Source: a virus
Direction: 5' to 3' (one strand)
IMG/VR virus record: IMGVR_UViG_3300032093_000041
Coordinates: 32,001-96,000 of that record
Length of the DNA stretch: 64,000 bases
A program made the translations under genes and the position numbers. Each line of letters starts with the position of its first letter. The first letter of the stretch is position 1. Under the pieces are notes generated by a model. That model did no database searches. It had not been told where the DNA came from and was given only the letters and a program-made list of their open reading frames with translations. Shown here piece after piece: positions 2 to 42,454 of this stretch.

Positions 2-925
2 GATGTTGAGCTTCTGTCCGACGGCTTTGCTGTGCCAAACATTGACTGGTATGGCGAGGGCGCATCAGATGCACTTGTCACGGCAATGGATGGGATTGCA
101 GAAAAGTTTGCTTTTGGCAGGAGTGCTAGGTCAACAGCAAAAAGAGCAAGAAAACTTGTAAAACCTTCTGTGTTTGACGGAGATGGTGACGGTTTCATGA
201 CCGGCCGAGACGGTAGGGACAATATTCCATACAAGCCAAGAATGCCAAGGACTGACGAGCCAATCGAGATACCTGAAGAAATCCCGGTCCCAGAACCAAC
301 TCGTATCCCTAAGCCAAATCCAGACAGAACGCCTTCTAGGCCAGCGCCGGCCCCAGCACCCTCTGTTCCTCAACCGCAGCGTCCTGCAGTCCCTGCTGGT
401 AGACGTGACATGATGCCACGAATGCCGCGTACCGATGAGCCAATCGAGATTCCGGAAGAGATACCAGTACCAGAGCCAACTCGTATTCCTAAACCAAATC
501 CGGACAGAACTCCATCTAGACCGACTCCAGCACCAGCCCCATCGGTTCCGCAGCCACAGCGCCCTGCGGTCCCAGCAGGACAGCGTCGCAGAGAAGAAAT
601 ACGTAAACAGATGATGGAGCTGCTCCGCCGCCAGTACATGGCTTCACGAGGCAAAGCAGACACGTATGCCGTCTATATGACTGTTTCGGAAAATCACGAC
701 ATCAATATAAAAAGTGCACAAAATGTCAATAGTCGTGACATTGACTCGTTGCTGCTTGAGATGCCAGTTGAGTACATCTACGAATTCAAGTCACTTATTG
801 ACCCCGTAGCGGACTATCATCGAATTAGTGTTGTCGCCGTGGACTCTGGTCTGAAAATATTCGAGGCTTCAAAGTTGACAGTGGCAGCACTGGACGCAAT
901 GAGCAACGTCGTTAGAGGCTGGTAG
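2..925 (+). CDS. 5'-truncated head-region protein with DxDxDG motif and duplicated 55-aa Pro-rich repeat
   Basis: Frame is open from position 2, so the real start lies upstream of the window. Contains FDGDGDG and two copies of PRMPRTDEPIEIPEE...PAVPAG. Confidence 0.75.
   Translation, partial: DVELLSDGFAVPNIDWYGEGASDALVTAMDGIAEKFAFGRSARSTAKRARKLVKPSVFDGDGDGFMTGRDGRDNIPYKPRMPRTDEPIEIPEEIPVPEPTRIPKPNPDRTPSRPAPAPAPSVPQPQRPAVPAGRRDMMPRMPRTDEPIEIPEEIPVPEPTRIPKPNPDRTPSRPTPAPAPSVPQPQRPAVPAGQRRREEIRKQMMELLRRQYMASRGKADTYAVYMTVSENHDINIKSAQNVNSRDIDSLLLEMPVEYIYEFKSLIDPVADYHRISVVAVDSGLKIFEASKLTVAALDAMSNVVRGW
236..580 (+). repeat. Two copies of a 165-nt (55-codon) repeat with 180-nt period
   Basis: Copies at 236-400 and 416-580 are 54/55 aa identical, with about 32 synonymous codon differences by hand count. 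Confidence 0.95.
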
Positions 926-927
926 AA

Positions 928-1131
928 ATGTCTTCCAGATTCTCTCGTCCGAAGAAGAACGTCAGCCAGAATAAACCGCAAATAGGTTATTCTAAACCTG
1001 TAGACAATCAAAAAAAATCGTACAAGTATCACTGCATGGTCACGGGCGATAAACGCGCTCTTCCTTGTGGAGGATGCGTCAACCCTAAAGGTTGTTTATC
1101 AAATTCGATGCAGTACAAGGAGATGAAGTAA
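928..1131 (+). CDS. Small Cys-rich hypothetical protein
   Basis: 67 aa with HCMVTG...PCGGCVNPKGC; stop overlaps the next start (TAATG). Confidence 0.7.
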   Translation: MSSRFSRPKKNVSQNKPQIGYSKPVDNQKKSYKYHCMVTGDKRALPCGGCVNPKGCLSNSMQYKEMK

Positions 1132-2582
1132 TGGCTGAGACACCAGTAGTAAAGCTTGACGCTGACGGTGAAGTGGTTCAGTGTGCCAAGGGCATGGACT
1201 CTGGCGAGTGTGGCTACACACCTGGAGCAAAGGTATGCGGTAAGTGCGGCGCTGTCGCACAGCAAATGAAGTCAGCTTCAATTGGAGGAATGATGGGCAT
1301 GGGTGGCGGACCTGCTGGCATGCCAGTCGCTACACCAATGCGCAAAAAGCCTCGCCCAATGGGTCCCCCAAGTCTTGACGACGAAGAGGACGATGACCTT
1401 GTTGGCATGGAAGGCATGGAAGAAGACGACATGATGGACGACGAAGACGACATGATGGATACCGAAGACGGCAAGATGATGGGTTACGACGACCTTGATG
1501 ATGATGAATCAGAAATGTACGTCCGCCGTGCGGCACCAAAGCGCAAGCGTAATGTTGTTGCCATGGAAGATGCTGACATGGAAGAAGACATGATGGAAGA
1601 AGAGGACGACATGGAAGACTCCATGATGGCCTCTCGCCAAAAGATGAGAAATCGTCGTCTTGGCAGCATGGGATACAAGTCATCCGAATTTGATAAAGAT
1701 GCATTCCTTTGCTCTTTCGACCGCAAGGTTTACCCAGGCGGTTCTCCTGTTTGTGATTCATGCCCTGGTGGATGTGTTCCAGAAGATGGAATGCCTTCTC
1801 TTCTTGAAGTTGAAGGAATGGCAGAAGACATGTTCAAGGGTAAAGTTCTTGACTCTGGCTACTCCGACGAAGCAGACCTATTTGTGGTTGACATTGAAAG
1901 AAAAGATGGCAAGCCAGTAGAGATTTTCTTCGATGGTTCATCTGGCGAAGTTATGGGATGGCACCTTTTGAACAGCGATTTAGTTGAAGTAAAGTCTGCG
2001 CTTGTAAATAAAGCAATGATTAGCTTTGGCGATGCTGCTGACATTGCGGTAAAGACAGTCACTGGTGACATCGTTGCTGTTGAACCAGACGTATTCGAAG
2101 GATACGACGTTTACGCAGTGGAGATTGACGGCATTAACGGCAAGTCCTACGACGTCTTCGTTTCACTCGATGGTGAAGTTCTTGGTTACGACGAGTACAC
2201 AATGGAAGAAGCAACAGAGATTGAAGCAGAAGCTGCCGAGATTGCTCTGAAGCGTGCTTACAGCGAGGACACTCGTAAGGCAATGTCAGACAAGGGTCAA
2301 GCCCTTCCTGATGGCTCTTACCCAATCGCCGACGAAGCTGACCTTCGCAACGCAATTCAGGCTTACGGCCGAGCAAAAGATAAAACAGCAGCCAAAGCGC
2401 ACATCATGAAGCGTGCAGTTGCTCTTGGTAAAGAAGACTTGATTCCAGTTTCATGGGTTTCAAAGGAAGACATTGAAAAAGCAAAGGCTGGAGAAAAGTC
2501 AGCAGATGACAATTTCTTATCAACGCTGATGGAATTTGAAATGCTCACCGTCGCCGAAGATACAGAAACAGAATCGGAGTAG
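1131..2582 (+). CDS. Head-associated/scaffold-like protein: Cys motifs, acidic tract, two PepSY-like domains, C-terminal DUF6582-like domain
   Basis: AAGGAG precedes ATG 1131. PepSY-like repeats ...KGKVLDSG...VEIFFDGSSGEVMG and ISFGDAADIA...YDVFVSLDGEVLG. ALPDGSYPIADEADLRNAIQAYGR resembles a phage head-protein domain. Confidence 0.7.
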   Translation: MAETPVVKLDADGEVVQCAKGMDSGECGYTPGAKVCGKCGAVAQQMKSASIGGMMGMGGGPAGMPVATPMRKKPRPMGPPSLDDEEDDDLVGMEGMEEDDMMDDEDDMMDTEDGKMMGYDDLDDDESEMYVRRAAPKRKRNVVAMEDADMEEDMMEEEDDMEDSMMASRQKMRNRRLGSMGYKSSEFDKDAFLCSFDRKVYPGGSPVCDSCPGGCVPEDGMPSLLEVEGMAEDMFKGKVLDSGYSDEADLFVVDIERKDGKPVEIFFDGSSGEVMGWHLLNSDLVEVKSALVNKAMISFGDAADIAVKTVTGDIVAVEPDVFEGYDVYAVEIDGINGKSYDVFVSLDGEVLGYDEYTMEEATEIEAEAAEIALKRAYSEDTRKAMSDKGQALPDGSYPIADEADLRNAIQAYGRAKDKTAAKAHIMKRAVALGKEDLIPVSWVSKEDIEKAKAGEKSADDNFLSTLMEFEMLTVAEDTETESE

Positions 2583-2856: not shown

Positions 2857-5800
2857 GTGCAGGATGATGTACTAAAAAACAAACTGCTAGGAATGGCATC
2901 TTCTAAAGATGCAAAACTAAGCACGGCTCCTTCTTCATCTTCTAAAAAAAATACAGACGATGAAGTCAAAAAAGAAGATAAACCAGAGAAGCCGTCTAAG
3001 GCTCAGTCTGAATACGAGCAGTTTTTAATTGACTGGGAGCCGTCAGACCCATTGCCGTTTTTCCCACCTGGAAAAATTATCAAGCTATGCCACCTAAGCA
3101 ATAACCCAATGGTTACTGGGTCGGACTATTACATAGACAACCCTGAAACAACTAAAAAAGCTTATAAACCTAATAAAAAAAGTATTGAAGAAGAGTTTTT
3201 AGAGGTTAAAAACCTTGGGCCAAAACTGAGTCGTGGTCTTTCTTCTCTTCTGGCAATGGTTGCTAGGTCTAGAGGGTTGTGGGTAGATGACAAAAATAAA
3301 TTGCGTTGTCCAGAAGGAACACCAGCTGCCAACCAATTTACAGACATAACCGGAAGTAACTGCTTTATACCTTCGCCGTCTGCCGCAGCGCAAAGTGGTG
3401 CTCGGGCAGCAAGAAGAGCATTTGGTACAGCAGAACAAATGGCAGCGGGCATGGGGCAACGTGTTGACCGCAGTCCATCTGGTCGCTCTAATGCTGCAGC
3501 AAGATATTCTCCTTCAGACTTGGCGATGCTTCAGGCAGGAATGGACATTGGCGGAAGAATGGCGATGCTAGGCGGAGCATCTCCAAGCTTGAGACAAACA
3601 CGAGGAACGGGAGGGGCATCCAAAACCGGTATGCCCATTTACTACATCGGCAAAAGAGAAGCGATAGCAAGAGGTAAGGACCTAACGCGCGCTGCGGCTG
3701 AATTAAAAAGACGATACTCGACAAGTGCGCAAGCTTCAGAGGCAATCGTTTACCCCCCTGGCTCACGGTTTGCAGGTCAACCAATTGGAGATGTTCTAAA
3801 TAAGGCTGACTTCATGAGGGCAATGGAAGAATTCATGCCCAATGTTGACCCCAATGAATTTTCTGAATACTTCGACAATGCAATTCCTGGTGTTTTGAGT
3901 CTTAACGACCGCAGAGCGTACGTGAGAATGTTCGAAGCTTTTTGGCAAGCAACAATTCAGCAGATGACCGAACAGCCAGACGCTTACAAAATCATCACAA
4001 CATTTGAGATGATGGATGACATTAACACTGCTGTAGAAATCCAGGTTGACCCGTTTTCCCCTAGTCCTCAAAGCGGAGGAAGACTGGCTGGTGTTGGTGC
4101 CATACAAATGGCTAGACAAGCTGGCCTTATGGCAGAAGGTGGCGCTCACGTAAGGTTCAAAATAAGCCCATTTGGCATGTGGCAGCAAGCCAATAATGTT
4201 GGGCGCAATATGGACAGCGACGGCTCTGGGTGGTGGGATAGCCGCGAGGGCAGGATGCATTACATCGCTGTTCATGAAACAGGCCACGTTGTCGACTTCT
4301 ATCAAAAACTGAAGGCTTTTGGATTAGACCCTAATGCTATGCAAAGATATACGGCTCCACAAAGAGTCGTTAACGTACCAGGTGCTGGTCCCTCTGTTCA
4401 GCAAGACAAATATAACGGCGCGTGGATAATTGACTGGTCACAAGTGTCGAATCCTATGAACAACCCGTTCATAGATGACATGATTCAAGCTGCTGCACGA
4501 CTAAAGGGCACCCAGTATACCGGTTCACGTTTTAGTGGCCGAAAAATAGACCTACAAGATGACATGAATGCTTTTTATGCAAACCTTGTTTGGGGCTTTC
4601 AAAACAACATAAACCACGACCCAAGCGACTTGCCACTTATGGCTGCGCTCGTTGGTGGCGCATATGCGACAGACTCCGGTGTAGAGACAAGAGCTGAGTA
4701 TTTTGTCTATAGGCGTTTATTTGGAGAACTAAGAGGAGCGCAATCAGCAACACCTGGTTTCAACCCTTTCAAAGACCAATTGCAGAGCGGTCCATTTGAC
4801 GCGACTCCAAGCGATATTGACTTGCGAACAACTTCCGCTAGAAAGAATCAGAGCAACAACCTGCTCACTCATTTCTTGGATGCATGGGCAACACAGGAAA
4901 GACAGAGAGCGTTAGAGCCTGGTGGAGCTTTGTATCAAATCATTCAGCAATTACCACCAGGGCAAGCCATACCGCAAAGCATTATTGAAGACTTTGAAAG
5001 AAACGTTGCCGCGGATACGTTGGCAAGACTGAACAAACTGGGGCAGGATGTTTTTGGTGTAGCCCCAAATCAATGGAACATCAGTGGTCGAATGGGGAAC
5101 ATCCAAGGCCCTTCGAGCAGACCACCATCACTTCATGCTCAAAGAGTAAGAACTGCTGTTCGCTCCAACAACATACGCACTACACGTGGCAAAAAGCAAC
5201 CCAGCGTCAGCTATGGAATAAGTGGTCGGATGGGAAACCCAGACCCAGTAAAACCACAGCGTCCTCGCGAACCAGACAACGGACCATTTACTGGAAAATT
5301 CCTGGATGTACTCCGTGGTTCATCTACGTGGAAACAATTTGCAAAAAAATACCGCGACCAAGAAGTTGTTTTCTTTGATTATGAGACCACCGGGTTTGGT
5401 GATGACGGCAACATGCCAGTGCAAATTGGCGCAGTAAAAATGAAGAATGGGAAAGTTGTTGAGCGTTTCAATGTCTTTGTAAACCCTGGAATACCGCTGG
5501 GTGATTGGGCCAAGAAGAATCTTAAAGACGACAAGGGGCAACCATTGACTGATGAATGGCTTGCTTCAAAAGCATCACTAAAAGAATCTCACGAAAAGCT
5601 ATTAGAGTTTTTTGGTGAAGATGCTTTACTGGGAGGTCAATACACTCCATTCGACCTAGAAGTTTTAGAACGAATACTTGGGCAGGTTGGCCTGGAGTAC
5701 AAACCGGCTGGGGTTATCGACTCAAAGGCAATGGCCGACGAAATACTGCCACGATGGACACCGGAAAACCCAGATGGTCCAACAATGATTGACCCAAAAA

Positions 5801-8028
5801 CTGGTGCTAAAAAAGGTTCTAATAGCCTTGGTCCTTTAGCAGAATACTTGGAAGTTGACCTGGGAGATGGTTGGCACACAGCCGATGCTGACTCTGAAGC
5901 GTCAGCAATGATTATTGAAAGAATGCTAGATAGAGCCGCATCAAGGCCAGACACACCAAGACGCATACTCGACGTTGACCAAGTGCCGCTAATTGTTCAG
6001 GAGCGCCGTGCCCAGTACGACAGAGACATGGCGGATTACTCAAAGAAAAAAGCCGAATACGACCAGTTAATCTCAGGACGCATGGGTGCTTCCCAGTTCG
6101 AGACAGCAAACGGTTCTGTATATACGCGCCAGCAAGATGGAACATTCCGCAGAAAAAAGAGCGCAATGCTCGGAACCACAATCGAAGACACCGACATAGA
6201 GTCAACATATGACAACACAGTATTTGTCGACGCTGATGATGCTTATTTGATTATGGCGCAGGGTCAAAGAGGCGCAATCATCGATAAAGATGGGGACCTA
6301 GTTGGTAGGCGATACGACGACACAGATTTGGACAGTGCAAAGTTCATGTCATTCCGCCGCGAGGGAGACGACTTCGATACTGCATATAAAAAAGCAGGTG
6401 GCACGGTTCAGGAAGAAAAAATACCAGCAGTTCGTATCAGCAGAGAACCGCAGAGCGGTTTAAAGCCAATTGAGTGGAACAACAAAGACAACAAATTTCA
6501 TGTCGGTAGCCCTGTTTCTTCGATAACCATGGAGACAAGCCAGCAAATATCTGGCAGGATGGGAAATCCTCAACGAGCATCTTTGGCAAAAACAGTGCAG
6601 GTTAAAGAGATGCTTGCCTCGACGAAAAGCTCTGTTGGTGCAGCAATGTCGGATGAGTACATTGATTCCTGGCCTGAAATTGAATCAAAGCTAAATCAAA
6701 GCGAAATCCTTGCTCGTAAGCCATTGACTAAATCAGAAGCCCGTCAAAGGACTAGAAGTGGAATTCAATGGTTTGCTAAAGCATTGCAAGATGCAATAGG
6801 TGGAGAAGGTAGAGACCCACAGCAAACAGTTATGTCGCCGTACTTAAGAGGCGTTGAGCTTGACTTCATGGCACACATAGCAGAAATGTCTGAAGATGAA
6901 CTTGAGCAAGAAGTAATTGATGCCATATCAGAGTTTCACGCCGGAATAGACCCTCGCCCGCATATTCAGGTATGGCAAGGGGACTTGACGCGCATTATTC
7001 AGAATGGCTACAAGACAACCCATCAGGTCGATAGTGACCACAGCAATAGTCCAATGAGAAAAGTCTATGAAGCAGAAATAGGCATACACCCCGACGTCCC
7101 TGACACAATGAGGCCAGCTTCTGGTTATATAGTTCATACAGATTGGCTCAACGCAGAAGACAAAGCTGCAGCAGATTTGGTACAGCTAGTCCCCGGCGCT
7201 GACCCTGAAGTCAATTTACCTGAATTCACTTCCCGAGGAAATGCGGAAACAATGCGCGGTCCTGTTCATGTATACGGCGGAGCTGAAGTTATATTACGCC
7301 CAGAAACTAGCGGAAGAACTTTTTATGGATATGGTGATTCACTGAGAACTAGGTTTACCCCTGCCAGCGTCGAGTCGGTCGACCCAGACGAAGTTGCTCG
7401 GTCGATTATTTTTGGTGGAACAACACCGGTAGAAAATATGCTCGATTTGCTTCATGGGAAATGGAAGGGTGACTATTCTTCTAGGCGCTATGAAGCAAAC
7501 AGCCCATCAAAAGAGTATTATGAAGCCCTCGTTGTTGGGGGATTTGATGCTGCCGACATAGAGGAAGTAATAATCCCTTCTCCAGAGGTAATCCCTGTTG
7601 AGGTGCTTTTTGAGTCAGAATCGTTGCCTGGGCAAAGAAACGAAGACAGAATTGCAAGGGGATACGACACGGACGCAACCATACCTTCTTTTTCAAAAAT
7701 GAAAGAATCTCAGTATTGGGTTGACAACGCCGGTGTAAGCGCCGAAGATGCCGAAATTATAGCTAGAGAAATAGCCAATAAAAAATTATTGTCCGTTGGT
7801 TCTAATGTTAATTTAGCCCGACTCCTTGCGGCAGAAAAAATCCGCAAACAACTTGAGGCTGCTGGAGCAAAAATGACAGTCCGCAACGATACGGGCGTGG
7901 ACTTCTTTAACCCAGACAGCTGGATTCAGGACATGAAAGACAAGTCAATGGAAGACGTTGCGGAGGCGCGTATGCGGCAAAGAATCATGTGGTCAATCAA
8001 AGACCAGCTAGCTAAGGCGACAGCATGA
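2857..8028 (+). CDS. Giant modular protein A (1723 aa): zincin-like region, DEDDh exonuclease, unknown module, DUF3626-like module
   Basis: HETGH at 4273-4287. ExoI FFDYETTG, ExoII PFDLEVL, ExoIII HTADADS. C-terminal GYKTTHQ...RPASGYI...YGGAEVIL...GDSL...YYEALVVG. Four ISGRM linkers. Confidence 0.85.
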   Translation: MQDDVLKNKLLGMASSKDAKLSTAPSSSSKKNTDDEVKKEDKPEKPSKAQSEYEQFLIDWEPSDPLPFFPPGKIIKLCHLSNNPMVTGSDYYIDNPETTKKAYKPNKKSIEEEFLEVKNLGPKLSRGLSSLLAMVARSRGLWVDDKNKLRCPEGTPAANQFTDITGSNCFIPSPSAAAQSGARAARRAFGTAEQMAAGMGQRVDRSPSGRSNAAARYSPSDLAMLQAGMDIGGRMAMLGGASPSLRQTRGTGGASKTGMPIYYIGKREAIARGKDLTRAAAELKRRYSTSAQASEAIVYPPGSRFAGQPIGDVLNKADFMRAMEEFMPNVDPNEFSEYFDNAIPGVLSLNDRRAYVRMFEAFWQATIQQMTEQPDAYKIITTFEMMDDINTAVEIQVDPFSPSPQSGGRLAGVGAIQMARQAGLMAEGGAHVRFKISPFGMWQQANNVGRNMDSDGSGWWDSREGRMHYIAVHETGHVVDFYQKLKAFGLDPNAMQRYTAPQRVVNVPGAGPSVQQDKYNGAWIIDWSQVSNPMNNPFIDDMIQAAARLKGTQYTGSRFSGRKIDLQDDMNAFYANLVWGFQNNINHDPSDLPLMAALVGGAYATDSGVETRAEYFVYRRLFGELRGAQSATPGFNPFKDQLQSGPFDATPSDIDLRTTSARKNQSNNLLTHFLDAWATQERQRALEPGGALYQIIQQLPPGQAIPQSIIEDFERNVAADTLARLNKLGQDVFGVAPNQWNISGRMGNIQGPSSRPPSLHAQRVRTAVRSNNIRTTRGKKQPSVSYGISGRMGNPDPVKPQRPREPDNGPFTGKFLDVLRGSSTWKQFAKKYRDQEVVFFDYETTGFGDDGNMPVQIGAVKMKNGKVVERFNVFVNPGIPLGDWAKKNLKDDKGQPLTDEWLASKASLKESHEKLLEFFGEDALLGGQYTPFDLEVLERILGQVGLEYKPAGVIDSKAMADEILPRWTPENPDGPTMIDPKTGAKKGSNSLGPLAEYLEVDLGDGWHTADADSEASAMIIERMLDRAASRPDTPRRILDVDQVPLIVQERRAQYDRDMADYSKKKAEYDQLISGRMGASQFETANGSVYTRQQDGTFRRKKSAMLGTTIEDTDIESTYDNTVFVDADDAYLIMAQGQRGAIIDKDGDLVGRRYDDTDLDSAKFMSFRREGDDFDTAYKKAGGTVQEEKIPAVRISREPQSGLKPIEWNNKDNKFHVGSPVSSITMETSQQISGRMGNPQRASLAKTVQVKEMLASTKSSVGAAMSDEYIDSWPEIESKLNQSEILARKPLTKSEARQRTRSGIQWFAKALQDAIGGEGRDPQQTVMSPYLRGVELDFMAHIAEMSEDELEQEVIDAISEFHAGIDPRPHIQVWQGDLTRIIQNGYKTTHQVDSDHSNSPMRKVYEAEIGIHPDVPDTMRPASGYIVHTDWLNAEDKAAADLVQLVPGADPEVNLPEFTSRGNAETMRGPVHVYGGAEVILRPETSGRTFYGYGDSLRTRFTPASVESVDPDEVARSIIFGGTTPVENMLDLLHGKWKGDYSSRRYEANSPSKEYYEALVVGGFDAADIEEVIIPSPEVIPVEVLFESESLPGQRNEDRIARGYDTDATIPSFSKMKESQYWVDNAGVSAEDAEIIAREIANKKLLSVGSNVNLARLLAAEKIRKQLEAAGAKMTVRNDTGVDFFNPDSWIQDMKDKSMEDVAEARMRQRIMWSIKDQLAKATA

Positions 8029-8348
8029 AAAAGGTATTGGTTGGGAAAACTGGAGACGGAGGCAAGCTCTACTTTGTCATAGGCGGCAAGACAGACGGCA
8101 TTTATCAAACCAGAAACAGAATGACTGAAATCAGTTTTTGGGATTTTGTTGACAAAAGACCAGATTTAGAAGAACTAACAATAACCAAAACACAGAAAAT
8201 GCTCTGGTCAAGAAATGTCTCAAATGCGGAGTGGGTTTCCCGCTTTATGCCACCGCAATGGAGGGTTAGCGAGGATGAAAACCCATACAACCTCAAAGTG
8301 AGTCGCGCATTAGATACAATAAGAACTACGACAGATTATCTGTTCTAG
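8025..8348 (+). CDS. Small protein coupled to giant protein A
   Basis: ATGA overlap with the stop of 2857..8028; 107 aa. Confidence 0.7.
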   Translation: MKKVLVGKTGDGGKLYFVIGGKTDGIYQTRNRMTEISFWDFVDKRPDLEELTITKTQKMLWSRNVSNAEWVSRFMPPQWRVSEDENPYNLKVSRALDTIRTTTDYLF

Positions 8349-8374
8349 AATTAGCCCTGCCGCAAGGATACCTA

Positions 8375-9019
8375 GTGGATACTTTTGAGAAATTTCTCTC
8401 CAATAAAATTATAATTGTAGACGAAGAAAAGGCGGGCGGACCTGCCGGTGCTGTCATCCCCCAGGAAAGACTTACTGGCGACGTACTAAAAGGTCGGGGG
8501 CCCAGAAGGGGAAATCTCGAAAGACTCCTTAGATACTGGCGTCCAATAATGAAAAAACCGGGCGGCTTCAGGCGTTGTCGCGTAATCCTGGCAGACCATC
8601 CTGAGCTTTACCCACTGGAGAATATCTGCGCTTGGTTGCATCATGAAACAACGGGTCTATGGCCTAACGAGGGATGCCACCACCCCGGCATGAAGAACTG
8701 CAAAAAGAAGCTTAAAAAGGGCACCCAGGGCAGCCTTTGGACAGACAAAGACTTTGATGACAGGATGAGAAAACTTACATCTAGGGCGACCAGAAAGAGT
8801 CTACAATTTTCTGGTGTAGTAACCCCCGATGAGCCGTTTGCGCCAGTAATCACTAATGAAGATTACGACCATGCTTTTAAGGTTTTACAAGATTTCTTTG
8901 AAATGGAACCAGACTTTTGCAAAATGCTCATAGACGAATCCAGCTGGGAGCATACGCATGGTTTTGAAACTCCTAAAATTAAGATGGTCCCGGTAGATGA
9001 AGACAGTATCTCTTTCTGA
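8375..9019 (+). CDS. Hypothetical head-region protein with Cys/His motif
   Basis: LLRYWR...GGFRRC...NICAWLHHETTGLWP, a motif type I recall from actinophage head-region proteins. Confidence 0.7.
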   Translation: MDTFEKFLSNKIIIVDEEKAGGPAGAVIPQERLTGDVLKGRGPRRGNLERLLRYWRPIMKKPGGFRRCRVILADHPELYPLENICAWLHHETTGLWPNEGCHHPGMKNCKKKLKKGTQGSLWTDKDFDDRMRKLTSRATRKSLQFSGVVTPDEPFAPVITNEDYDHAFKVLQDFFEMEPDFCKMLIDESSWEHTHGFETPKIKMVPVDEDSISF

Positions 9020-11057
9020 TTGCTGCAGCGAAAAAGGGCTGCAACCAATAATCCAGACTCGGCACGTGATGCCAGAGTTAGCGCTGACGCACGTCAACGC
9101 ATTTGAAGAGCCACTACCCAAAGACTCCAGTTATCGTGCTGCAGTTCTGTACAAGTGTGCAATGCAGCGCCGAGGCGGACGTCAGGGGCTAGAAGTAAAA
9201 GTTGGTTCAATCACGTCGACAAGCCCATTCTTACAAGGGGTTCAATCCGTTGGTTCAATGCTTGTCCCTGGAGACACTGCCCCACTGCGAAGCCCAGTAC
9301 GGTCAGGACTAGCCAGGCTTGTTACCCCCGGTGGTGTTCGTGGTGCCAACCCTTTTGCTTATGGCAAGCCAAACCGTGGCTACAGATGCCCAGAGGGTTA
9401 CCAGTTCGGCGGAAGATTCACTGACTCACGTTTTTCTACATGCGGCAAGCAGTTATTTGACCTTCCAGGCACGATTGGTGCCGTAATAGGAACAGCGCTT
9501 AGGCGGTCTGCAGATTCTTTAATTGACGGTTTTAAACCCACGACAAGTCGCGTGGGTGCGCTTTCTGTGTCCGGAGACATAATTCAAAGCAGGGCACCAC
9601 AGATACCTAGAGTATCTTCCCTCAATAAAAGAGTAAGAAACTCCAATACAGAATCAATCGTCTCTGCAATGTCGAGCGTTACGGAACCGTACAGAAGAAT
9701 GGTGCGTCGTGATGGATTTGTTCTTGAGCCAGTTGTTAGCAATGCTGTGCTACGAACGATTCCTGACAACAGAGACATGGAAGGTGCAACGTTCATACAG
9801 ACAGCTCTTGAGCCGAAGACGATTGGACAAGACGAACTAGGTCTACTTTCCAACACAGGAATTCAGAAGCTTGTCTATGTCCTTAATGGTGGCTCAACCC
9901 TTAATATTGAAAAAGCCAGGCCCCTGACTGTTGGTGAAAGACGCAAACTCGGTAAAACCGTGAATGTCGCAATGAGGGCCGACAACAGTTCCGACCCAGC
10001 AGCAAGATTGAGACTTGTAGCAGAAGAAATGGGCGACGCTGTTAGATATGAAGAGTCTTTCGAGCAAATATCAAACCCCAACGAAATAGTTGTGGCAAAG
10101 ATTCCTGGCTCGAACGTTAAAACACGTGTGAAAAGATGGGTTTATGAAGCGTTTTACGCCAAAAAACCAACTAAAAAAACGCCAGCAGAAGTAGATACAG
10201 AGGACGGCGACACGCTGTCCCCCGGCAAAAAAATTGACAATCTTTCTGGAGCCGTACGTCACTTAAACGCAGGCGGTTCTTTAGAAAATATATCTAGCGC
10301 AATTCGCGTAGAGGCTCTAAGACGTAGTCGACTTTACAAGACTGGGAAACTCAAAGAAGGAGTAATTCTTCACGAGCGTGCAGATGGACAAACTGTCTTT
10401 GAAATGAAACCGAAAAAAGACTTTGAGCATCTAGGTGCAGCATTTGCATCAGAAGTGCAAAGGTCTCTAGGTCTAATCGCGCCAAAAGTGAGGGTTGCTG
10501 GAAGCGGAAATAGGCGTCCGTATCTTATTGGGGAAGCACAGGATGCTGCCACCAAGGGCTCGCAATCACGTTCAGACGGTCTTAAAAACGTCGCTGCAGA
10601 GGATTTGGTTGGACTGGCTATTGCTGACTGGCTTACCGATACATACGGTAGGTCTCCGGCGAATATTGCTCCGGTGAACATTAGCGGCTCAATGCGTGCT
10701 GTCTCATCAATAAATCCGATGGCTGGTTTGCCGACATCAAATGCTCGAAATGTAAGAGTCAGAATGGATTCTTCGATTGATGATTTTTTTGGCCAGCAGT
10801 TGCGCGAAATGTATCGCAAAAATTTCGAGCGCTTGCAGGCTGAGCAACGCAAAAAAGCTTTACAAATCATTGCTGCATATATAGAGCGTGCGCAAGATAT
10901 AGACTTTGCGGACATGAGAAGGCGTCTAACTTTAGACGGTTCTTTATCTCAGGCAGAAAAACGACACCTTGGAATTATCGAAAACCTTTTTAATAGGCGG
11001 CTTGAAACGCTTCGCACGTCGCGGGCAGCATTTATAAAAGTTCTCGGTCTAAAGTAA
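8997..11057 (+). CDS. 686-aa protein with RCP..FT..C motif and degenerate HipA/PI3-4-kinase-like C-terminus
   Basis: LEVK at 9189; RCPEGYQFGGRFTDSRFSTC at 9384-9443; SEVQRSLGLIAPKV...IADWLTDTYGRSPANI. Confidence 0.75.
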   Translation: MKTVSLSDCCSEKGLQPIIQTRHVMPELALTHVNAFEEPLPKDSSYRAAVLYKCAMQRRGGRQGLEVKVGSITSTSPFLQGVQSVGSMLVPGDTAPLRSPVRSGLARLVTPGGVRGANPFAYGKPNRGYRCPEGYQFGGRFTDSRFSTCGKQLFDLPGTIGAVIGTALRRSADSLIDGFKPTTSRVGALSVSGDIIQSRAPQIPRVSSLNKRVRNSNTESIVSAMSSVTEPYRRMVRRDGFVLEPVVSNAVLRTIPDNRDMEGATFIQTALEPKTIGQDELGLLSNTGIQKLVYVLNGGSTLNIEKARPLTVGERRKLGKTVNVAMRADNSSDPAARLRLVAEEMGDAVRYEESFEQISNPNEIVVAKIPGSNVKTRVKRWVYEAFYAKKPTKKTPAEVDTEDGDTLSPGKKIDNLSGAVRHLNAGGSLENISSAIRVEALRRSRLYKTGKLKEGVILHERADGQTVFEMKPKKDFEHLGAAFASEVQRSLGLIAPKVRVAGSGNRRPYLIGEAQDAATKGSQSRSDGLKNVAAEDLVGLAIADWLTDTYGRSPANIAPVNISGSMRAVSSINPMAGLPTSNARNVRVRMDSSIDDFFGQQLREMYRKNFERLQAEQRKKALQIIAAYIERAQDIDFADMRRRLTLDGSLSQAEKRHLGIIENLFNRRLETLRTSRAAFIKVLGLK

Positions 11058-11058
11058 A

Positions 11059-14000
11059 ATGAAACAAATTTCTCTTGTTAAAGACAAAATAGACGGGTCC
11101 CCTTTTGCTGTCCTCCTGATAGACAAAGGTTCTGTCACGGCATATGGCTCTCCTGGACAAGGAGAAGACTGGGCAGAATGGGTCAATAGTCAAGAAACAT
11201 CCGTAGAAGAAATACAAGATGTTCTAGATGTTCGCCTGGTTGCTGAACCATCAATTCCAGCAAAAAAATTTAACGAGAGCTCAATCAGTAGCTACTTAGG
11301 TCAAGAAGCAATGGACTTGCTAATGGCAGAGTTAAATAAAAAAGCTCTGCTAGAAATAGTTCAAGTTAAGTCAGAAAGTCAGCCGCAGGAGTATGACGAG
11401 GAAGACCTTCCGGACTACACGCCCATATCGGTGTGGCCGTTGTCTGAAATATCGCTGGCTTCCATAGATGTTGCATACAAATCTCAGCTTGCTGATTACA
11501 AGGCTAAAGCTTTCAACGCCGACAGAAACAGGCGGGCGCTTGCTCTTGAGGTGAAGTGGGCTAGAGCTATTTGGGATAACGACCGTCAAGGATGGCGTTG
11601 CCCACCAGAGACCACCAATGGCGGCCAGTTCACTAACAGAATGGGTCTTGGTTGCACCACTGGTCTTGTTCGACGTCTTGGTCAATCTCTGATGAGCATT
11701 GAAGACAGAAATAAACTTCAGATGCAGCTCCCAGGACTAGAAGACCCGAGAGGTTTCCTGTATCGCTCTGGTTCATTAATTGACCAGCGAGCAGAAACTA
11801 GACAGCGTGAATTTGCTGACCGACAAGAACGTCGCGCAGCACGCCGCGTTCGCAGTCTTATCGAAAAAGAAGGAAAAAAAGAACAAGAGCGTTTAGCTAA
11901 AGAAAACAAACGCAAACATCGTTCTGGGGAATCTCTAAGAGATATTTATTCAAGTTTTACGCCAGACGCAAGCAGAGTGTCTCGCGCACGTGCTGCTGGA
12001 GCAGTAAAGCTTCGTCGGTTTGCATCCAACGTAGAGCAAGAATCACTCAGGAATATTGGGGCGAGTCAACAGCGCAGAGACCGCAGGGTTAGGGACGTAT
12101 CAGAGGAAAAGCTAGACAGTAAGAAGATACGCAAGCTCCGCGATTTTGGTGGAAAAATACCTGGTTCAAAACTTGGAGGCTATGTCCAGTACGACAAGAT
12201 GATGGCAGACGACAAAGGGCAGGCTGTCGACATCAATGGCGAACTCATGGTCCCTCGTGTTCTTGTGGACATGGATGAAATGCACTCTAATCCATACTAC
12301 GGAAGAGAATTTTTAACAGATGATTCCGGTAATCAAGTAGAAAATTTCCATGCCAATCATAAGTGGGTCACCGTAGAAGAAGTACTCGCTATGGCGTCTA
12401 TCAATCGCGCGACCAAACCAGCACATGACTGGATTGAAATGCGTAAGGGGCGAGGTTTCCCTGGTGATGAAACCATTGAGTTTGTTGAAGCAAAAGAACT
12501 TCGTAAAATTCAAAAAGACAATGGATTTATTGGAGTTCGGTCAAGCTTAAAAGACAAAGGCAAAGGCCGTTTTGACGGAGACACTCGCGGCAAAGGCAAG
12601 AAGAAGACAAAACCAGCGCAAGGCGGCTCCATCGGCGACATGGAATTTGAGCCAGATGAATTGCCGCCAACCGTCGCAAAAAGGTTTGGAGATGCATGGC
12701 GCGATAGCAGAAAACGTCTTGGTTCGTGGATTGCAAACCTTGACCCCTTGCTAGATGAAGACCAGAAAACACGTCGCGAAAAGCGTCGCCGCCAAAAAGC
12801 TTCAAAATCTAAAGACTCGAGCGCCATAAACGGTGCAAACATTCTTCAGTCTCTATTCTCTGATATTGATGACCCGATAGAGGCAACCGTGCGATACGCA
12901 CAACTGTCCAACTTTAAAGAACCAGAGTTCAGAGACTGGTACGACTACACCACAAACAACAAACCAGTACCTGAGCGTCGCGAAGATTGGAACTTTGGAT
13001 TCAATAGTGTAATTGGCGAACCGACACCTCATTTTGCTCGGCTCAAAAACCTTATAGACGGAATAGTGTCAGAACACGCCGCTGGCGTACTGATTACAGC
13101 GGACGACTCAGAAGACCCCGATATAACCAAATTTATTTTTCAAGATTACGACTTCAGTACAAAGTTTAGGTCTGGTCAAATTGGGAATGTATACAACGTG
13201 CGTGTTGTAACAAGGACTGATGGCGTTGAAGAAGTACGACAAATAGCTGTAGATTCAATAAGTCTAAATCGCTGGACGGATAATCCATTAGACGAGAACA
13301 GACAACCAATTACGGCAACTGATGCAGGTCTATATATGCTGTGGTCAAACACAACGTTTTTAGATGTTCCGGAAGATGTCGTAGAGAGAGCAGCTAGTGG
13401 GCAAATGCCTACGTTTGAGCTCGTAGAGCTTGCTGCGAAACAATGGGTGGACCCAGGGTATCACGGTGCTCAGCCGCCTGCTTTCTATTATGACCAGGCC
13501 ACTAAATGGCACGAACATTACAGGGTTATCGGCTTCAACCAAAAGGGTGCTCCGCTATATATCAAGGGTGCAGGCGGGAGGGGTCGGACCGGGTCAACGT
13601 CGGTACATATCCCTGGCACATCAAATTCTGTCGTAGACACGAGAACCGGTGGTCTTATTTCTGGCCGCATGAGCCAAGAAACAATAATCACCCCAGAAGG
13701 TCAGCGAGCCCTAGACGACCCTAATGTGAATATTTGGACTGGTGAACAAAACTTTCTGGTGCTTGACGGAGGCCCTGCACCCGGGCGCGGACGCCGGCGT
13801 CGTCGCACATCTGGTCCTACGCCCCAGTCTCCTGGTGTTGTATCGCGCTTCCTTGATGGAGAAGGTCGCCAACTAAGTAGAGAACGCCGCAGCGCAAGAA
13901 GGATGCTAAAGGGGCGTACACCAAAAGACACACGCCCGATACGTCAACGCATAGAAGCTGCGCTGTATGAGAGGTCACGTCGTCGGTCAGGCGAGCCAAG

Positions 14001-17000
14001 ACCCATTTCAATGCAGGCACCGGATATCGACATAAACGTTTACTCCGACGAGCTTCGCAGAATGGAAGAAAGCGGAGAGTCGATAGAGGCACGCAATGCA
14101 CTTCCACCGATAGATGGCGTATATGACTGGTTGCTCCCAGATAACTTTTCCGCTGGCAATGATTGGTGGGGCTCTGGCGTAAACCAGCAACGAATAGACA
14201 CCCTTAATGCTTCATTACACGAGCTTGGAGGTTCATTCTTCCCGCTCGTATCGCAACGCGATATTGACCGTTTGCCGCAGCTTGCTGAAGAAGGCAGAAA
14301 GTGGCTAGAAGACATAAATGACCCTGACAAGGATTCTGCTCCTGGAGAAGTATCCAACTGGGGTTTTGCCGAATGGAAAGAGTATGGAGGATATACATAC
14401 GTTTACGATTCGAGGAACGAAACAAAACCGCCCATTGCAATCGTAAACAACGAATCCGGCACAACGCACATGATTGGCAAAGATGGCCAACACCTTATGA
14501 CTCTGGTCACGAGAGTGGCTCCATCTGGAGAAACTGTATTTTTGCCCGTTGGCTCAAACTCGACGCATAAACGGCTCGACAACATCACTGAGCAGCCGGG
14601 ATTCTTGCAGACAGTTTTAGGTAAATTCCGTAGACGCCAACAGCAAGACATAAACCCAGAGCAGATTATCCCTGGTCTTCGTTCCAGAGAACGAGCATTC
14701 ACTCGTGGCGACAATACAATTGAGGACGTTCGTTCCCAGTTTGAGAATGGGACACCTTCAGATACGTTCCCATACTCATTTGCAACAAAGCAACGTACTG
14801 GCGCATTAGCTCCAACTTCTCTTACAACTCTTCAGGAGGAGTCACTGCTAGAAGAAGCAGATAAACTGCAGGTACAAATCGCCGATGACTTTAGACGTCA
14901 ATTGGGTCTAAACAAAAAAGACCAACTGACCGAAGAGGCAATCAAAGACCTCATTGATGACCTCCAACGTCGTGGCAAAAAACGCGAAGCTGGAATTGCA
15001 ACAAACAACCTTCACGACCTTGCCGTACTTGATGACATGTTGCAGTCACGAGACGTTATGCATGTCAACAACCTAAAGCCGGGCCGCAGGCATCTACTTT
15101 TAGGCACAAGCGTAAACCCAGTACCAGACTCCGAGCAAAAGCGCCGCCGCGCAATGACGCCAGACATGATTCACGTTTCCAGTGATTCAAGAGCAATGGA
15201 TTCAAGGCTTTCAGACAGAGGGGACACAGACCCAGCAACGTCTAAGAGAACATATCCGAGTGGAGCAATAAATCTCTACGAACCGTCTGAAGAGTCGTTT
15301 ACGCCTTCATCGCCAAGGCCGCAAACTGGACCAGCCCTCATTCCGGGGGAGGGCGATGCTACTGGAACAATTGTTTATCAAAACGGAATGTATTTTGATA
15401 CGTCAACAAACCGTTACGTAGAAGACTTAAGTGGTCTCGATTTTGAATCAGCAGACTTTGTCCATGTTCCTGTTCCTTTAGAGGAATCTTCTACAAACGG
15501 AATCGACGATTTAGGCGGGGAGTTTCCTAAAATTCTTCTTACTTCCGGACCTGGTGCTCCTAGTCGACAATCGGCAGTCATAGCTCCTGGAGTTTCAAGC
15601 ACGAATCCAGAAGCCGCTCTTACTTCTAGGCCAGATGCTGTTAATGCCGTCGTAGCAAAACCGAATTCATTTACCGAAGCATTTTACTTAGTAAGAAATA
15701 GATGGCGTCAGATTGCCGCAACAAAACCTGCCGACCAGACTGAGCCATACCGAAAGCTGACAGACAAGATTGGCGCAGACCCAGCTCCGACTGCATTTAT
15801 GCTGTCGTCGCTGTTGAGCCCGCTTCTTTCTAAGGCAGACGGTCTGGAATCAGAAGAAGGCGTGTCTCTATATTCAGCACCAATTCATTCCCCTACGCTT
15901 TCCGGTAGCGACAATGCCGCAGGAATATTGAGGGCAATAAGAAACGCATCAAGAAAATCACCAACAGAAAACGGTCTTTTCTCTGATTACTTACCTGGTT
16001 CATCAGGCGACATTGTCTCGTATTCTGGTATGGCAGTTGGGCCCCACGCACCCCGTGGGCAGACGGTACTTGACGCAATAGGCGTATTTGCTGACTTGCC
16101 GTTTGAGACTGTTTATATACCGAGCACCCAACCAATAGCTCCAAATGTGGCGCAGCACAATAGTTTAGCGAATGCAAACCGAACATTACTTGATACAAAA
16201 ATATTCCGGTCGCTGAACGCTGCACTCCAGTTGGATTACGCGTCGCAAAAAATGCGTCAGCTGCTGGATAGCGGCACACCACAAGAAATAACTGGCTGGA
16301 ACGACACATGGGGTAAAAGATTCGGCGGAAGATTTGACATAACACAAGCAGATATTGAGTCTGTCGAGCAGCTACGTGATGCAGCGTGGCAGCGTGCGGC
16401 GGAAGACCTTTCGTCCGTTGCTAAAAATGCTGGTGACCGCAGAAACGACTTCCTTAACCAGTGGCGTAATCGCTCCCAATTCCGCCCAGAGAATCGCGAG
16501 ATAGACGCTGAGCTCAGCATTGCCACCGAATACATCACTAATGGTGTTATTGCTGAGCAAGCGGAGTACCTACTCACTAAGCACATACTCACCAATCCAC
16601 GAATAATGCAAAGCCTTGCTCAGTCCGAGCTTGTATCTTTAGAGTCGCGTTCAAGAGAAGCGAACAAGAGAATGGAGAGGCTCGAAGCTATACGTAGTGC
16701 GCAAACCGCACTAGGTAGGCGCTCTATGCCTGGGTATTCACCAGAAGACATTGACCCCATTGAATTATTGCCAGTACTTGATAGACACGGTGATGGTGTT
16801 GTTACAAACGCATCACTGCGCGACCCAGCAGAAATAGTCGAAATATTGTCTGACCACAAATCTCTTGGATTTGGAGCTCCTTTAGACATAGACCCAGCAA
16901 CTGGAGAATATGTTCCATCCATTTTAACCGACGACCAAATGGAAGCATTGGCGCTAATAGATTACTCAATCCGTAGAAATCTAAGCCAAGGAAGTCCAGC

Positions 17001-18799: not shown

Positions 18800-21700
18800 A
18801 TGCTTATTGAAAACGAAGACGAGAAGCCTAGGAACAGAAAGCTTCGACGCAACAAAAAAAACTGGGAAAAGCTTAGAGAAAAACCAATTGTCGCTATCGA
18901 TACCCTGTCTGGTGGCGGTCTTGTTTCAGGTCAAATATCGGGCAAAGCTCTGGGAGGACGCATAGGTCGTCGTATTGGTGGAGCCTCTAAGCCAATGGAT
19001 ATGAATCCGACTACAGCAAGAGACGCCGACATGGACGGAATGGTCTTAGAGGGCATACCAACAATTCGCCAAGGAAGAGGAATGCCAGACCCCACACCGG
19101 GAGGCGAAGTCGCCGGCCGAATGGGCAGGGAGCAAAATAAAGAAGAGTTTGTAGGTGTAGACAAGCTTTTGCGCCAACATTTTTCACAGTTTGCAAAGTT
19201 TCAAGAATGGACGAAAAACAAAGATTGGAACGCATTCCATAGAAACCATTTTGACTGGTGGATGTTTCCAATCCCTCTCGGTTCTAATTCATATAGGGAT
19301 GAGTACAACATTGCCGGGGAACCGCTAGAAGAACTACGGCAAAACAAACGCTACATGGCAACGCTGGCGAGCGCAATGAGGATGTACACACGTTCAATCG
19401 GCTGGGACATGGACAGTCAAGAGTGGATAAATAACGCCGAAATAGAACGTGGGCAAGAGCCAGTTAGAAGCCTTAATCGTGCTCGCTTACTCAAAATTGC
19501 CCAGTCAGCTGAAGCTCATGGTCTAGATAATGAACTTAGCTCGATGAGCCACATGGTCAACGACATGCGTTCGAACGGCATCCCAACCGGAAATGATGAA
19601 TACTGGAATTCTATTTCTGGAAGGATGAGCAATCCTGATAGACCAAATTTTCCACTTAACCCAAAACAAGGCGACACTTTCTCTTCAGATGACCCAGAAG
19701 ATACAAGAATATGGAAATTTGATGGAAAGTTATGGGTTAGGCAAGACGGAGGCGGAAGACGCTCCGCGACAGTTGGGTTCCGTAAAGCCGGTGGCAGCGG
19801 GGGTAAAAGTATATCTCCATCAGCTTCTTCTATTAGGGCTGGTTCAGAAAGAACTGTAAAATATGGTTCGCCAGCTTTCGATGAGCTGTGGGAACGCCGC
19901 GACAAAGAAAACGAACAGGCGGACGGCACCAACCTAACATTTGACTGGAAAAATGAAGAGTCAAGGCTTTACTACTTATCAGTATTTGGCAAATTTCCCA
20001 ATACTCATCCTAAAAATAGAAAAAAAGTGGGATGGGCAAAATTTGGTGGGGGTAACGAGCCTGGGAATTATTCTGGGGGAACTCACTCCTGGATTGCTGC
20101 AGTAAAGAATCAATTGCGTGAACTTGGAATTTCACTCGTCCCACAAGAACACCCTAAAATGGGGGACCAATATGGAAGCTGGATTTCTTTCTCCGGCAGC
20201 CCTGGTGCGTCTGCTGCAGAAGGAGCATCAGCAAAACAGCTGTTATCTCATCTTGCAGAAACAATTAGCCCTGATACATTCTATGAACACTTTGAAGCTT
20301 GGATTAGAAATCCATTTGTAACAGCACAAAAAAACGGCAAAGACGTTGGCGTAAGACTTGCTTTCAACAATGATAAAGAAAAGCTTTTAAATGAATACCG
20401 GCGTAGAGTTATAGCGCTACGAGATGCATTGTACTCTCATTTTGGTAACGAGGTTGACGAAGTTGCCGAAACAATGGTTAAGCCCCTAACAGACTCATCA
20501 GGAAAATCCAGCACCAATACTGGGAACGATTGGGTAGACCTAACAGAAAATGCTAGATGGGCTTCCAACTTAATCAAACAACAAGTATCAAATATTCTTG
20601 AACAAGAAAAACCTCGCAGCGAAGAACGCCTTGCATATCTTTTAGATTCGCGACTGCAATCAAAGCTACCTGATGAAATAAGGCAACAAATACGAACATC
20701 TCCTAGTTTTATTAGAGGCTTGCTTCAAGAAGAATTCAAAAACAGGGACTGGGGGAGAGGAGATAATTTCTCCCAAATAGATTTAATGCCCTCCGTTGAT
20801 GACGAAACGGTGTCCCTGATTGAAGAATTAGCTGACGAATTTATAGAAAAACTAATAAGCGAAAATGCCGATGTGAGCGTAGTAAGTGACGCAGATTCTA
20901 AAAATTTCATTGATTCATTTGTTCAGGATTCCTCAATGCGGACATCCGCAGCAAAGCCGATGTTGCAGAGCAAACTCAGCAACAGAATAGCTAGAGGACA
21001 AATTTCTGGGAAAATGGGAAATACCCCAGAAAATGACATAGAAGCGAAAGACCTTGAATACGACCCCGACACGCCAGAGCATTTAGGGAACCATTTCACA
21101 TCGAAACATGAAGGGTACGACGTTAGGCCTAACCCTGTAGACAACGTCTTGGATGCGCGCAATACCGGCGCACCACTGGAGTGGCTCGTACCAGGTTCGT
21201 ATCACCCAGAAATAAAAGAATTAGTCAATGGGCTGACGGACAAGGTATTGGAGCTTGGGTTTGCTAGTTACCTACAAACAAATCCAGACTTCTACATGGG
21301 CTCTAAAGATACCGCTGGTCGCGATGCAGCATCGGAATTCAGAGGTTGGCTCGGAGGATGGATTGGAGCAACTGTTTCCAAGATAATGGCCTTGGGTGAT
21401 TTTGGTGAAGATTTTGAACTAGACGACGGTCATAGGGACTTCATAAGAAATTTCGTAGGAGACATGGCCGACACAATGACCCGCTTCTCTGACATACCGC
21501 GTGAAGACCCTGACGGTCGTGGCGGCAACACAATGCAAGTGCTTCGTGGCCTTATTTCTCGTGTTCCTGGATTTGGTTCAGGGGGAAGTATGACAAGCGA
21601 CCTAAGTCAAGAAGTAAATGACATAGCCAGCGGACTAGCAATGCGGGCCATACACGCAGGGTTAAAAATCAACAACATGCAACGTATGGGTATTAGCGAT

Positions 21701-41882: not shown

Positions 41883-42066
41883 GTCATCTCTTTCGCTTTT
41901 TGTTTCCCGCTGCAAATCCAATGAAATAACCGACGACACAGCCTATAAATAGACCACTGAAATACATGTAGAAATTCATGTCACCAGCCCAGCAGGAGTA
42001 CAACGTACCCTAGAATAATCGCCACAATAGCTACTGCGGCGGCAAATTTTTGTTCATTTTCCATAG

Positions 42067-42139
<73 letters not shown>

Positions 42140-42144
42140 GTCTG

Positions 42145-42447
42145 TCAGTTTATAACTGATTTTTCTTTTTCTTGCTGGCGCTTTATACGGCGCTGGACAT
42201 CTATTGATACAGGAAGTCCACGCTCCCCGCGTTGCTCTTCAGTTTCTCCGCCCCATATTCCTAGTGACTGCGTCATTACGCCGTATTCACGACACGGTTC
42301 AGAAACAGGACACTTAGCGCAAATCTCCAATGCTTGCTTTTGTAGCGCAGCACGTTTTTTCCCCACAATATTTGGAGAAGGGAAAAATAGGTGAGACTGG
42401 CCGCGACATAGCGAAAAGTCCATCCAGGTATTAGGTAGGTAGGTCAT
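42145..42447 (-). CDS. whiB: WhiB-family transcription factor
   Basis: WMDFSLC...FFP...ICAKCPVSEPCREYG...GIWGGETEEQR. Confidence 0.92.
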   Translation of the reverse strand: MTYLPNTWMDFSLCRGQSHLFFPSPNIVGKKRAALQKQALEICAKCPVSEPCREYGVMTQSLGIWGGETEEQRGERGLPVSIDVQRRIKRQQEKEKSVIN

Positions 42448-42454
42448 AAATGTA

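Follow-up and report, generated by a model that had tools for sequence, protein, structure and literature searches.

In phage HK97, the capsid protein gp5 is cut after a 103-residue scaffolding domain (PMC10275583), and in T4 and SPN3US, prohead proteases remove the N-terminal propeptides of proteins that are packaged and ejected (PMC10052503). Head modules can also encode polyvalent proteins, very long chains with multiple enzymes for which packaging and injection have been predicted (Iyer et al. 2017, PMC5512222). Here we describe a putative cargo module that three open reading frames (ORFs), denoted A, B and C, in the head gene module of an uncultured phage have in common; in this module, a lysine site precedes a loop with two cysteines. 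The analyzed window is a stretch of 64,000 nucleotides, bases 32001-96000 of a single viral contig of 105,678 bp (IMG/VR record IMGVR_UViG_3300032093_000041); PHROG matches identify genes for the tail sheath, baseplate wedge, tail fibres, large terminase and portal and show that the contig comes from a contractile-tailed phage. On the evidence of sequence comparison, the shared motif is a real, conserved and previously undescribed module, and it would represent an undescribed type of N-terminal cargo module in phages with HK97-type head proteases.

The proteins encoded in this locus have the same layout as polyvalent proteins, and RNase T, NUDIX, DnaJ, zeta-toxin-like, GNAT and DUF3626 domains are all found in the window. 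Multiple unrelated effector domains are clear only in one product, that of ORF E (NUDIX, DnaJ, zeta toxin and GNAT), with a single recognised domain each in A (RNase T) and B (kinase-like fold) and none in C. The phage anchor of polyvalent proteins is the MuF domain (PMC5512222), whereas here, the MuF-like PHROGs ('head morphogenesis') hit the portal, at its C-terminus, and none of A, B and C. Portal and MuF form one fused protein in this phage. No cysteine motif is mentioned in the text of Iyer et al. 2017 (PMC5512222). The cargo-loading peptides of encapsulins resemble the module in logic only: these are short conserved peptides at disordered termini of unrelated cargo enzymes, and the shell has the HK97 fold. 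However, the encapsulin peptides show no sequence likeness to the module, are mostly C-terminal and contain no cysteines, and encapsulins have no portal, tail or protease. The phage described here encodes a portal, a terminase, a tail sheath and a baseplate, and the docking of its cargo to the shell is something that we infer.

The module in ORFs A, B and C and its spread

The sequence-only reading of the window singled out three 20-residue strings with identical cysteine spacing (RCP-x7-[QR]FT-x6-C; x, any residue), each preceded by the tetrapeptide LEVK. All six elements are located where they had been placed and are in frame in ORFs A, B and C, as follows (window positions; aa, amino acids; h, hydrophobic residue):

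2857-8028, plus strand: ORF A, 1723 aa, with the module near the N-terminus and an RNase T-like exonuclease domain at aa 838-1018
3199-3210, plus strand: lysine site of A, LEVK, aa 115-118, family consensus [ILFM]-[EDS]-x-K-[SGAN]-L-G, a candidate prohead-protease site
3304-3363, plus strand: cysteine loop of A, RCPEGTPAANQFTDITGSNC, aa 150-169
3199-3429, plus strand: whole module of A, consisting of the lysine site, a short helix, a W-x-D-D strand, the cysteine loop and a basic RR helix
8997-11057, plus strand: ORF B, 686 aa, the best conserved of the three, with a disordered N-terminal region of 200 aa that includes the module, an alpha/beta domain at aa 200-390 and an atypical protein-kinase-like domain at aa ~400-686
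9144-9200, plus strand: lysine sites of B, VLYK53 and LEVK68 (LEVK, aa 65-68), with K53 and K68 invariant in 77 of 77 homologues
9384-9443, plus strand: cysteine loop of B, RCPEGYQFGGRFTDSRFSTC, aa 130-149, with R130, C131 and C149 invariant across the B family
11059-18411, plus strand: ORF C, 2450 aa, with no Pfam or PHROG match and only two cysteines, those of the motif
11545-11556, plus strand: lysine site of C, LEVK, aa 163-166, family consensus L-[EQ]-V-K-[GW]-[AV]-R-A
11596-11655, plus strand: cysteine loop of C, RCPPETTNGGQFTNRMGLGC, aa 180-199, with an h-x-R-R-h-G helix after it

The other positions of the loop are mostly invariant or nearly so in the B family. When the complete genome (105,678 bp) is translated in all six frames, the strict pattern is matched exactly three times, in A, B and C, with no other occurrences, against a chance expectation of about 9e-7 matches given the residue composition of the head proteins. 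Each loop is located 15-63 residues downstream of an exact LEVK, a tetrapeptide expected 0.19 times in the 12,949 head-protein residues, and the probability that LEVK precedes all three motifs at a distance of no more than 70 aa is about 1e-9. The LEVK codons differ among A, B and C (TTAGAGGTTAAA, CTAGAAGTAAAA and CTTGAGGTGAAG, respectively), and the motif copies are identical in 27-34 of the 60 nucleotides, which indicates conservation at the protein level. A recent DNA repeat or duplication is ruled out as the source of the copies because the codons differ. The characterization of A, B and C as otherwise unrelated is borne out by BLASTP, which detects no similarity outside the module: the A-C alignment spans 44 aa around the motif (E 0.006), and the A-B alignment 20 aa only. 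The association of the motif with LEVK holds for all three proteins of this phage, but the exact tetrapeptide is limited to this phage and its closest relatives.

Searches of a large protein collection yielded 691 homologues of B. In the 80 IMG/VR loci examined around such homologues, the motif was identified in 50 A-type, 78 B-type and 19 C-type ORFs. Both cysteines are invariant, and the R, P, F and T residues are at least 90% conserved, in an alignment of 83 sequences of the three types. The profile built from this alignment and searched against 1.84 billion cluster representatives matched 552 protein clusters at E<=1e-3, including 233 at E<=1e-10. The best 146 matches are mostly giant proteins (median length 1557 aa, maximum 4629 aa), in which the first motif copy is N-proximal, at a median residue of 194. 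A scan of GTDB genomes for the B family returned two short contigs of metagenome-assembled genomes only, with no prophage and no clue to the host.

Two to four copies of the motif are present in 26 proteins, always in the order A-type, B-type, C-type. Thus, P0130 combines A, B and C on one chain, P0139 and P0154 combine B and C, and in loci L113 and L117, an A+B fusion is followed by a separate C. In most of the fusions examined, a lysine site is found ahead of each loop; this arrangement and the fixed order are as expected if processing regenerates the same mature pieces. The repeated fusion and fission of the A, B and C units argue that the three work together. No Pfam domain was detected in P0154, P0139, P0145 or P0130, a comparison of the distant motif-bearing giants with PHROGs and Pfam revealed no fusions to structural proteins, and an IMG/VR search for loci related to P0130 and P0167 returned none.

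The genomic context of the motif is highly consistent. A degenerate DNA pattern for C-P-P-G-F-[EQ]-x-G-G-x-F-T retrieved 61 further IMG/VR loci that represent a second, more distant phage group; three of these, annotated with PHROGs, encode a portal, an HK97-type protease, an unknown protein of 465-633 aa, one or more motif-bearing proteins and the capsid protein. Across the motif-anchored loci, tblastn located the protease upstream, on the same strand, in all 32 loci with at least 6 kb of upstream sequence, the portal upstream in 38 of 38, and the capsid gene downstream in 10 of 10. A gene for a scaffold-like protein immediately precedes the first motif gene in 53 of 56 such loci. The profile search and locus check that the sequence-only reading had proposed thus came out as it anticipated, with the motif confined to the interval from portal and protease to capsid in the loci read; no motif was found outside the head module among the loci whose context was read, which are a minority of the profile matches.

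The lysine site and the prohead protease

The remaining genes of the head module, which are needed to evaluate the lysine site, are the following (a slash marks a cut site, actual or predicted):

28183-30474 of the genome, upstream of the window: portal with a MuF-like C-terminal part, assigned by PHROG
30568-32922 of the genome, with the C-terminal part at 1-925 of the window, plus strand: protease ORF, 785 aa, the first 200 aa of which are an HK97-family prohead protease
1092-2582, plus strand: acidic scaffold-like protein, whose gene immediately precedes the first gene with the motif in almost every related locus
18800-22603: ORF D, 1267 aa, with a DUF3626 domain
22827-34610: ORF E, 3927 aa, with NUDIX, DnaJ, zeta-toxin-like kinase and GNAT domains
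34936-36279, plus strand: major capsid protein of the HK97 fold, with GFK103/S104IG at 35236-35253

The gene order is portal, protease ORF, scaffold-like ORF, A, B, C, D, E and capsid gene.

Residues 11-186 of the protease ORF match PHROG 80 (E 4e-28), and BLASTP aligns the protein with HK97 gp4 (E 2e-8). The catalytic histidine and serine are retained (WGH aligns with FNH65 of HK97, and EWS-IGY with GMS114VGF), and this protease, of the same family as that of HK97, is encoded just upstream. The sequence at the HK97 gp5 cut is TFNK/SLGS (K103/S104), and the capsid protein of this phage has MGFK103/S104IGQ at the same residue number, with K-S-I-G kept in relatives. The A-type sequence K-[SGAN]-L-G resembles both K103-S-L-G of HK97 and the K103-S-I-G of the phage's own capsid protein, and among the known systems compared, the HK97 capsid site appears to be the best match to the candidate cut site. 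The two systems differ in that the candidate substrates in this phage are giant cargo proteins rather than the shell protein, and in that the B- and C-type sites diverge after the lysine.

Over the families, the lysine site follows the consensus [ILFMY]-[EDSQ]-[VIFYE]-K, with an invariant lysine that is followed by [SGAN]-L-G in A, [VR]-G in B and [GW]-[AV]-R-A in C. The first cysteine is 28-40 residues away from the lysine in A, 61-83 in B and 15-19 in C, and both lysine sites of B are kept in the second phage group. The leaders that precede the lysine range in length from roughly 12 (P0129-P0132) to 165 residues (C), and the downstream sequence is conserved, a pattern that fits a cleavage site. 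The same holds for the position of the A lysine in the AlphaFold model, at the border between a segment with a predicted local distance difference test score (pLDDT) below 50 and the module, with pLDDT of 71-77. Within a genome, the three lysine sites are more alike than across genomes, with 33 identities compared to 24.9 +/- 3.2 in shuffles (p ~0.009; 12 genomes). Similar sequences are present in the scaffold-like protein, VEVK301/SAL at 1983-2003, where the lysine is kept in 83% of 72 homologues, usually with serine next to it, and near the end of the protease ORF, YEFK/SLI at 779-799 of the window. The best reading of LEVK, we infer, is that of a prohead-protease site.

The signals known from T4, the capsid targeting sequence (CTS) of the internal proteins and Alt, and the propeptides of phiKZ and SPN3US are likewise N-terminal signals on packaged and ejected proteins (PMC10052503; PMC5512222). 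In those systems, however, a gp21-type protease cuts after glutamate (L/I-x-E or A-x-E), and the signal is the part that is removed, whereas in this phage, the protease is of the HK97 type, the candidate site ends in lysine, the leader is variable and the cysteine loop is on the retained side. Cleavage of the T4 type at L-x-E is ruled out by the wrong protease family and by the sites of the homologues, which end in lysine (IDIK, LDSK, FDFK).

With moderate confidence, we propose that the module is a head-loading or assembly tag on ejected cargo that would be trimmed by the prohead protease at the lysine site. Under this proposal, A, B and C would be enzyme-bearing head cargo that is incorporated in the prohead and then probably delivered to the host by ejection. 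The N-proximal module of 50-130 residues has, in order, at least one h-[ED]-h-K site, a spacer that varies, an h-x-D strand, a loop with the consensus R-C-P-x-G-x5-[QR]-F-T-[DN]-x5-C and a short basic helix. It would serve as a common address label that docks the cargo to a conserved partner, which may be the inner surface of the capsid, the scaffold-like protein or the protease polyprotein. The HK97-type protease would then cut at the invariant lysine and remove the variable leader, with N119 (A), V69 (B) and W167 (C) as the predicted new N-termini, and the cysteine loop, shaped by a disulfide or a bound metal, would stay on the mature protein. A capsid-targeting or assembly tag was also the suggestion of the sequence-only reading, and it is supported in part: in the loci read, the motif is confined to the interval between portal or protease and capsid, it is carried by unrelated, enzyme-bearing giants, and an HK97-type protease is encoded upstream. 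The exact LEVK on which that suggestion leaned is not conserved.

Several observations weigh against this proposal. The N-terminal position, also part of the original suggestion, agrees with the poorly ordered N-terminal region and with a first copy near residue 194, but in P0167, the motif copies are located deep in the protein, at aa 1418 and 1940, without an obvious lysine site. In P0225, a metagenomic protein of 1509 aa, an RNA-ligase-like region (aa 4-103) precedes the cysteine loop (aa 357-388), which implies that the 'leader' can itself be an enzyme. On the primed side, the sites of the B and C types are unlike the capsid site. The capsid-site lysine is replaced in 13 of 35 relatives, with A, Q, Y, T, E, G or S (once with R); given that the capsid lysine is replaceable but the cargo lysine is invariant, the latter may serve another purpose. 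The targeting signal of T4-like phages is removed, but the conserved module here would be retained. The covariation of the lysine sites within genomes rests on few (12), related genomes. Finally, tblastn found no match to B in 50,697 deposited phage records, and the family is known from metagenomes only.

A rival candidate for a cut site, real or additional, may be the peptide [IV]SG[RK]M[GS] (window 5080-34200). At what look like domain borders, it occurs four times in A, once in C, three times in D (VAGRM included) and 11 times in E. However, the 71,779 residues of motif-bearing giants from the second phage group, which has the same protease, contain no ISGRM[GS]. This peptide therefore seems to be a lineage-specific linker or cut site, whereas the lysine site and the cysteine loop are general.

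The cysteine loop and competing explanations

In the AlphaFold model of B, built with a 77-sequence alignment, residues 200-686 have a pLDDT of about 90, and residues 1-200 only 34-67, with no structure other than a short hairpin at 135-137 and 149-152. In the model of A, the segment from just after the lysine to the second cysteine (pLDDT 71-77) forms a short helix and small strands. Comparison of the N-terminal model of A with 48,161 chains using VIA-align gave no informative fold match (best Z 2.5). No match to the three module regions was found in Pfam at E<=10, PHROG searches with A, B and C returned nothing at the module, and a search of the ESM Atlas with aa 60-200 of B gave no usable match. 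When the motif profile was compared with PDB sequences, the best match was non-significant (E 1.2), to the chlorella virus minor capsid protein P7 (6ncl), with its W-x-C-P-x-G-T repeats. The models thus depict the loop as a short element within a flexible N-terminus, and to acquire its final shape, it probably requires a partner, a metal or a disulfide.

The strongest indication of the chemistry of the loop comes from composition, the cysteine content of these proteins being strikingly low. There are two cysteines in the 2450 aa of C, both in the motif, three in the 1723 aa of A, three in E and none in D or the capsid protein; the protease and scaffold-like ORFs, unlike the packaged-looking proteins, are cysteine-rich. 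Among the 146 profile matches, cysteine accounts for 0.25% of the residues, the motif pairs make up 63% of all cysteines, and 63 proteins have no other cysteine. An invariant pair in the face of such depletion implies that its thiols must be used, and the pattern would fit a disulfide within the chain, a metal site that is shared or a bond between chains. A complete zinc finger, with four ligands in two C-x-x-C/H knuckles, is ruled out: the two invariant cysteines are 18 residues apart, and there is no conserved histidine.

The module could alternatively be an exit or entry device, in which the flexible N-terminus, the cysteine loop and the basic helix lead the giants through the tail or act at the host envelope, with A, B and C functioning as a set. 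We consider this explanation unlikely. If the proteins are cut at the lysine site, the module is retained rather than removed, and a disordered N-terminal region would suit threading; furthermore, the triad occurs in a fixed order and is repeatedly fused, like proteins of one complex, and the neighbouring D and E carry a different tag (see below), so that the RCP tag is not required for every cargo. However, the proteins contain no membrane segments and no known conduit domains, and carry enzymes (the exonuclease of A and the kinase-like fold of B) instead of channel-like parts. The motif shows no link to tail genes, being located strictly within the head module, and contractile-tailed phages are not known to require such conduits.

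Another explanation, which we regard as quite unlikely, is that the cysteine loops are joining pieces, each a half metal site or a partner in an inter-chain disulfide, that form an internal head body. Such bonds would link A, B and C together or attach them to the cysteine-rich scaffold-like or protease proteins and might be released in the reducing cytoplasm of the host. Each loop offers two ligands and no conserved histidine, a phage has several loops, with 2-4 in some proteins, and potential partners exist in the conserved four-cysteine cluster of the scaffold-like protein and a cysteine-rich stretch of the protease ORF; extreme depletion of other cysteines would be expected if stray thiols were harmful. 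Yet the number of loops in this phage is odd (three), AlphaFold yields no confident packing, and an intramolecular disulfide explains the same data more simply. Moreover, joining overlaps with the assembly-tag proposal rather than excluding it.

Related to this is the rather improbable scenario of a switchable latch: oxidised or metal-bound in the virion, the two-cysteine loop would hold the giant effectors A, B and C together or fix them to the inside of the capsid, and would open and free them in the reducing host cytoplasm. The lysine site and the cysteine loop would then be a portable unit that makes any downstream protein head cargo, which would explain why it precedes each piece of the fused polyproteins and would allow its use as an engineering tag.

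Binding of the module to DNA, whereby a basic knuckle-plus-helix would anchor the cargo on the packaged genome, or at its end, for joint exit with the DNA, seems highly doubtful. The flanks are rich in arginine and lysine, the h-x-R-R-h-G helix after the loop is conserved, and the C-P-x-G turn is knuckle-like, but with two cysteines only, the zinc finger is incomplete, and neither Pfam (E<=10) nor the PDB sequences provided a match to a nucleic-acid-binding family. In addition, proheads, such as those of T4 and P22, load internal proteins before DNA entry. The notion that the similarity is due to chance or low complexity, without a function, can be dismissed, having only the shortness of the motif in its favor, against about 1e-6 expected matches and invariance in hundreds of divergent proteins with different codons.

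Neighbouring proteins and implications

The C-terminal domain of B (window 10200-11057) resembles kinases in VIA-align comparisons (Z 13.8 with CotH kinase, 13.6 with CtkA and 13.5 with PI4K II alpha), and Foldseek relates it to uncultured-phage proteins annotated as PI3K/PI4K-like. By its modelled fold, B is likely to be a packaged kinase.

The RCP loop is missing from D and E, which have in common another N-terminal tag of about 60 aa (56% identical, E 4e-15), with D-x-D-x-D-G followed by G-I-P, at 18920-19110 of the window in D and 23610-23820 in E. A similar stretch, DGDGDGF...NIP, is present in the C-terminal part of the protease ORF (~170-230). This phage thus seems to employ at least two kinds of N-terminal tags, of which the one in D and E is possibly a second head-loading tag.

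E also contains, at aa 44-62 (window 22956-23012), two cysteines 18 residues apart, GCIGIRRYLNRSGGESWMPC, with the spacing of the RCP loop, that weakly match Pfam DUF3721 (PF12518; E 0.002). This region is similar to the module in the separation of the cysteines (aa 44 and 62) and in its place at the N-terminus of a giant head-module protein, but differs in its consensus, G-C...W-M-P-C. Membership of the A, B and C modules in DUF3721 is ruled out, with no match of the three regions at E<=10.

The scaffold-like protein contains a PepSY-like domain and four clustered cysteines (C207, C221, C224 and C228) that 93% of 72 homologues retain, and over its last 70 aa, it shares 65% identity with the end of a protein of Gordonia phage ChisanaKitsune named 'capsid maturation protease'. 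The protease ORF includes a 165-nucleotide direct duplication (window 235-579), 79% identical, with the copies 180 nucleotides apart and a proline-rich product (MPRTDEPIEIPEEIPVPEP...), and, just upstream of the window, a cysteine- and glycine-rich run, HGCGCGGSCGG...CQCGGSCGGSC. Outside the head module, ten tRNA genes (Met, Thr, Pro, Gln, two Arg, two Leu, Ile and Lys) are clustered on the minus strand at 42066-52921 of the window.

The loading of very large ejected effectors into HK97-type heads is poorly understood, and the known loading signals come from T4-like and phiKZ-like phages, which have a different protease. The module provides a sequence handle, already encompassing 552 protein clusters, with which head cargo can be recognised in those uncultured phages whose giant proteins lack any other annotation. 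The module defines residues that can be tested, one lysine and two cysteines, and the near-total lack of other cysteines in these proteins is a clear compositional signal. If the module is sufficient for loading, it could become a tag for placing foreign proteins into phage heads.

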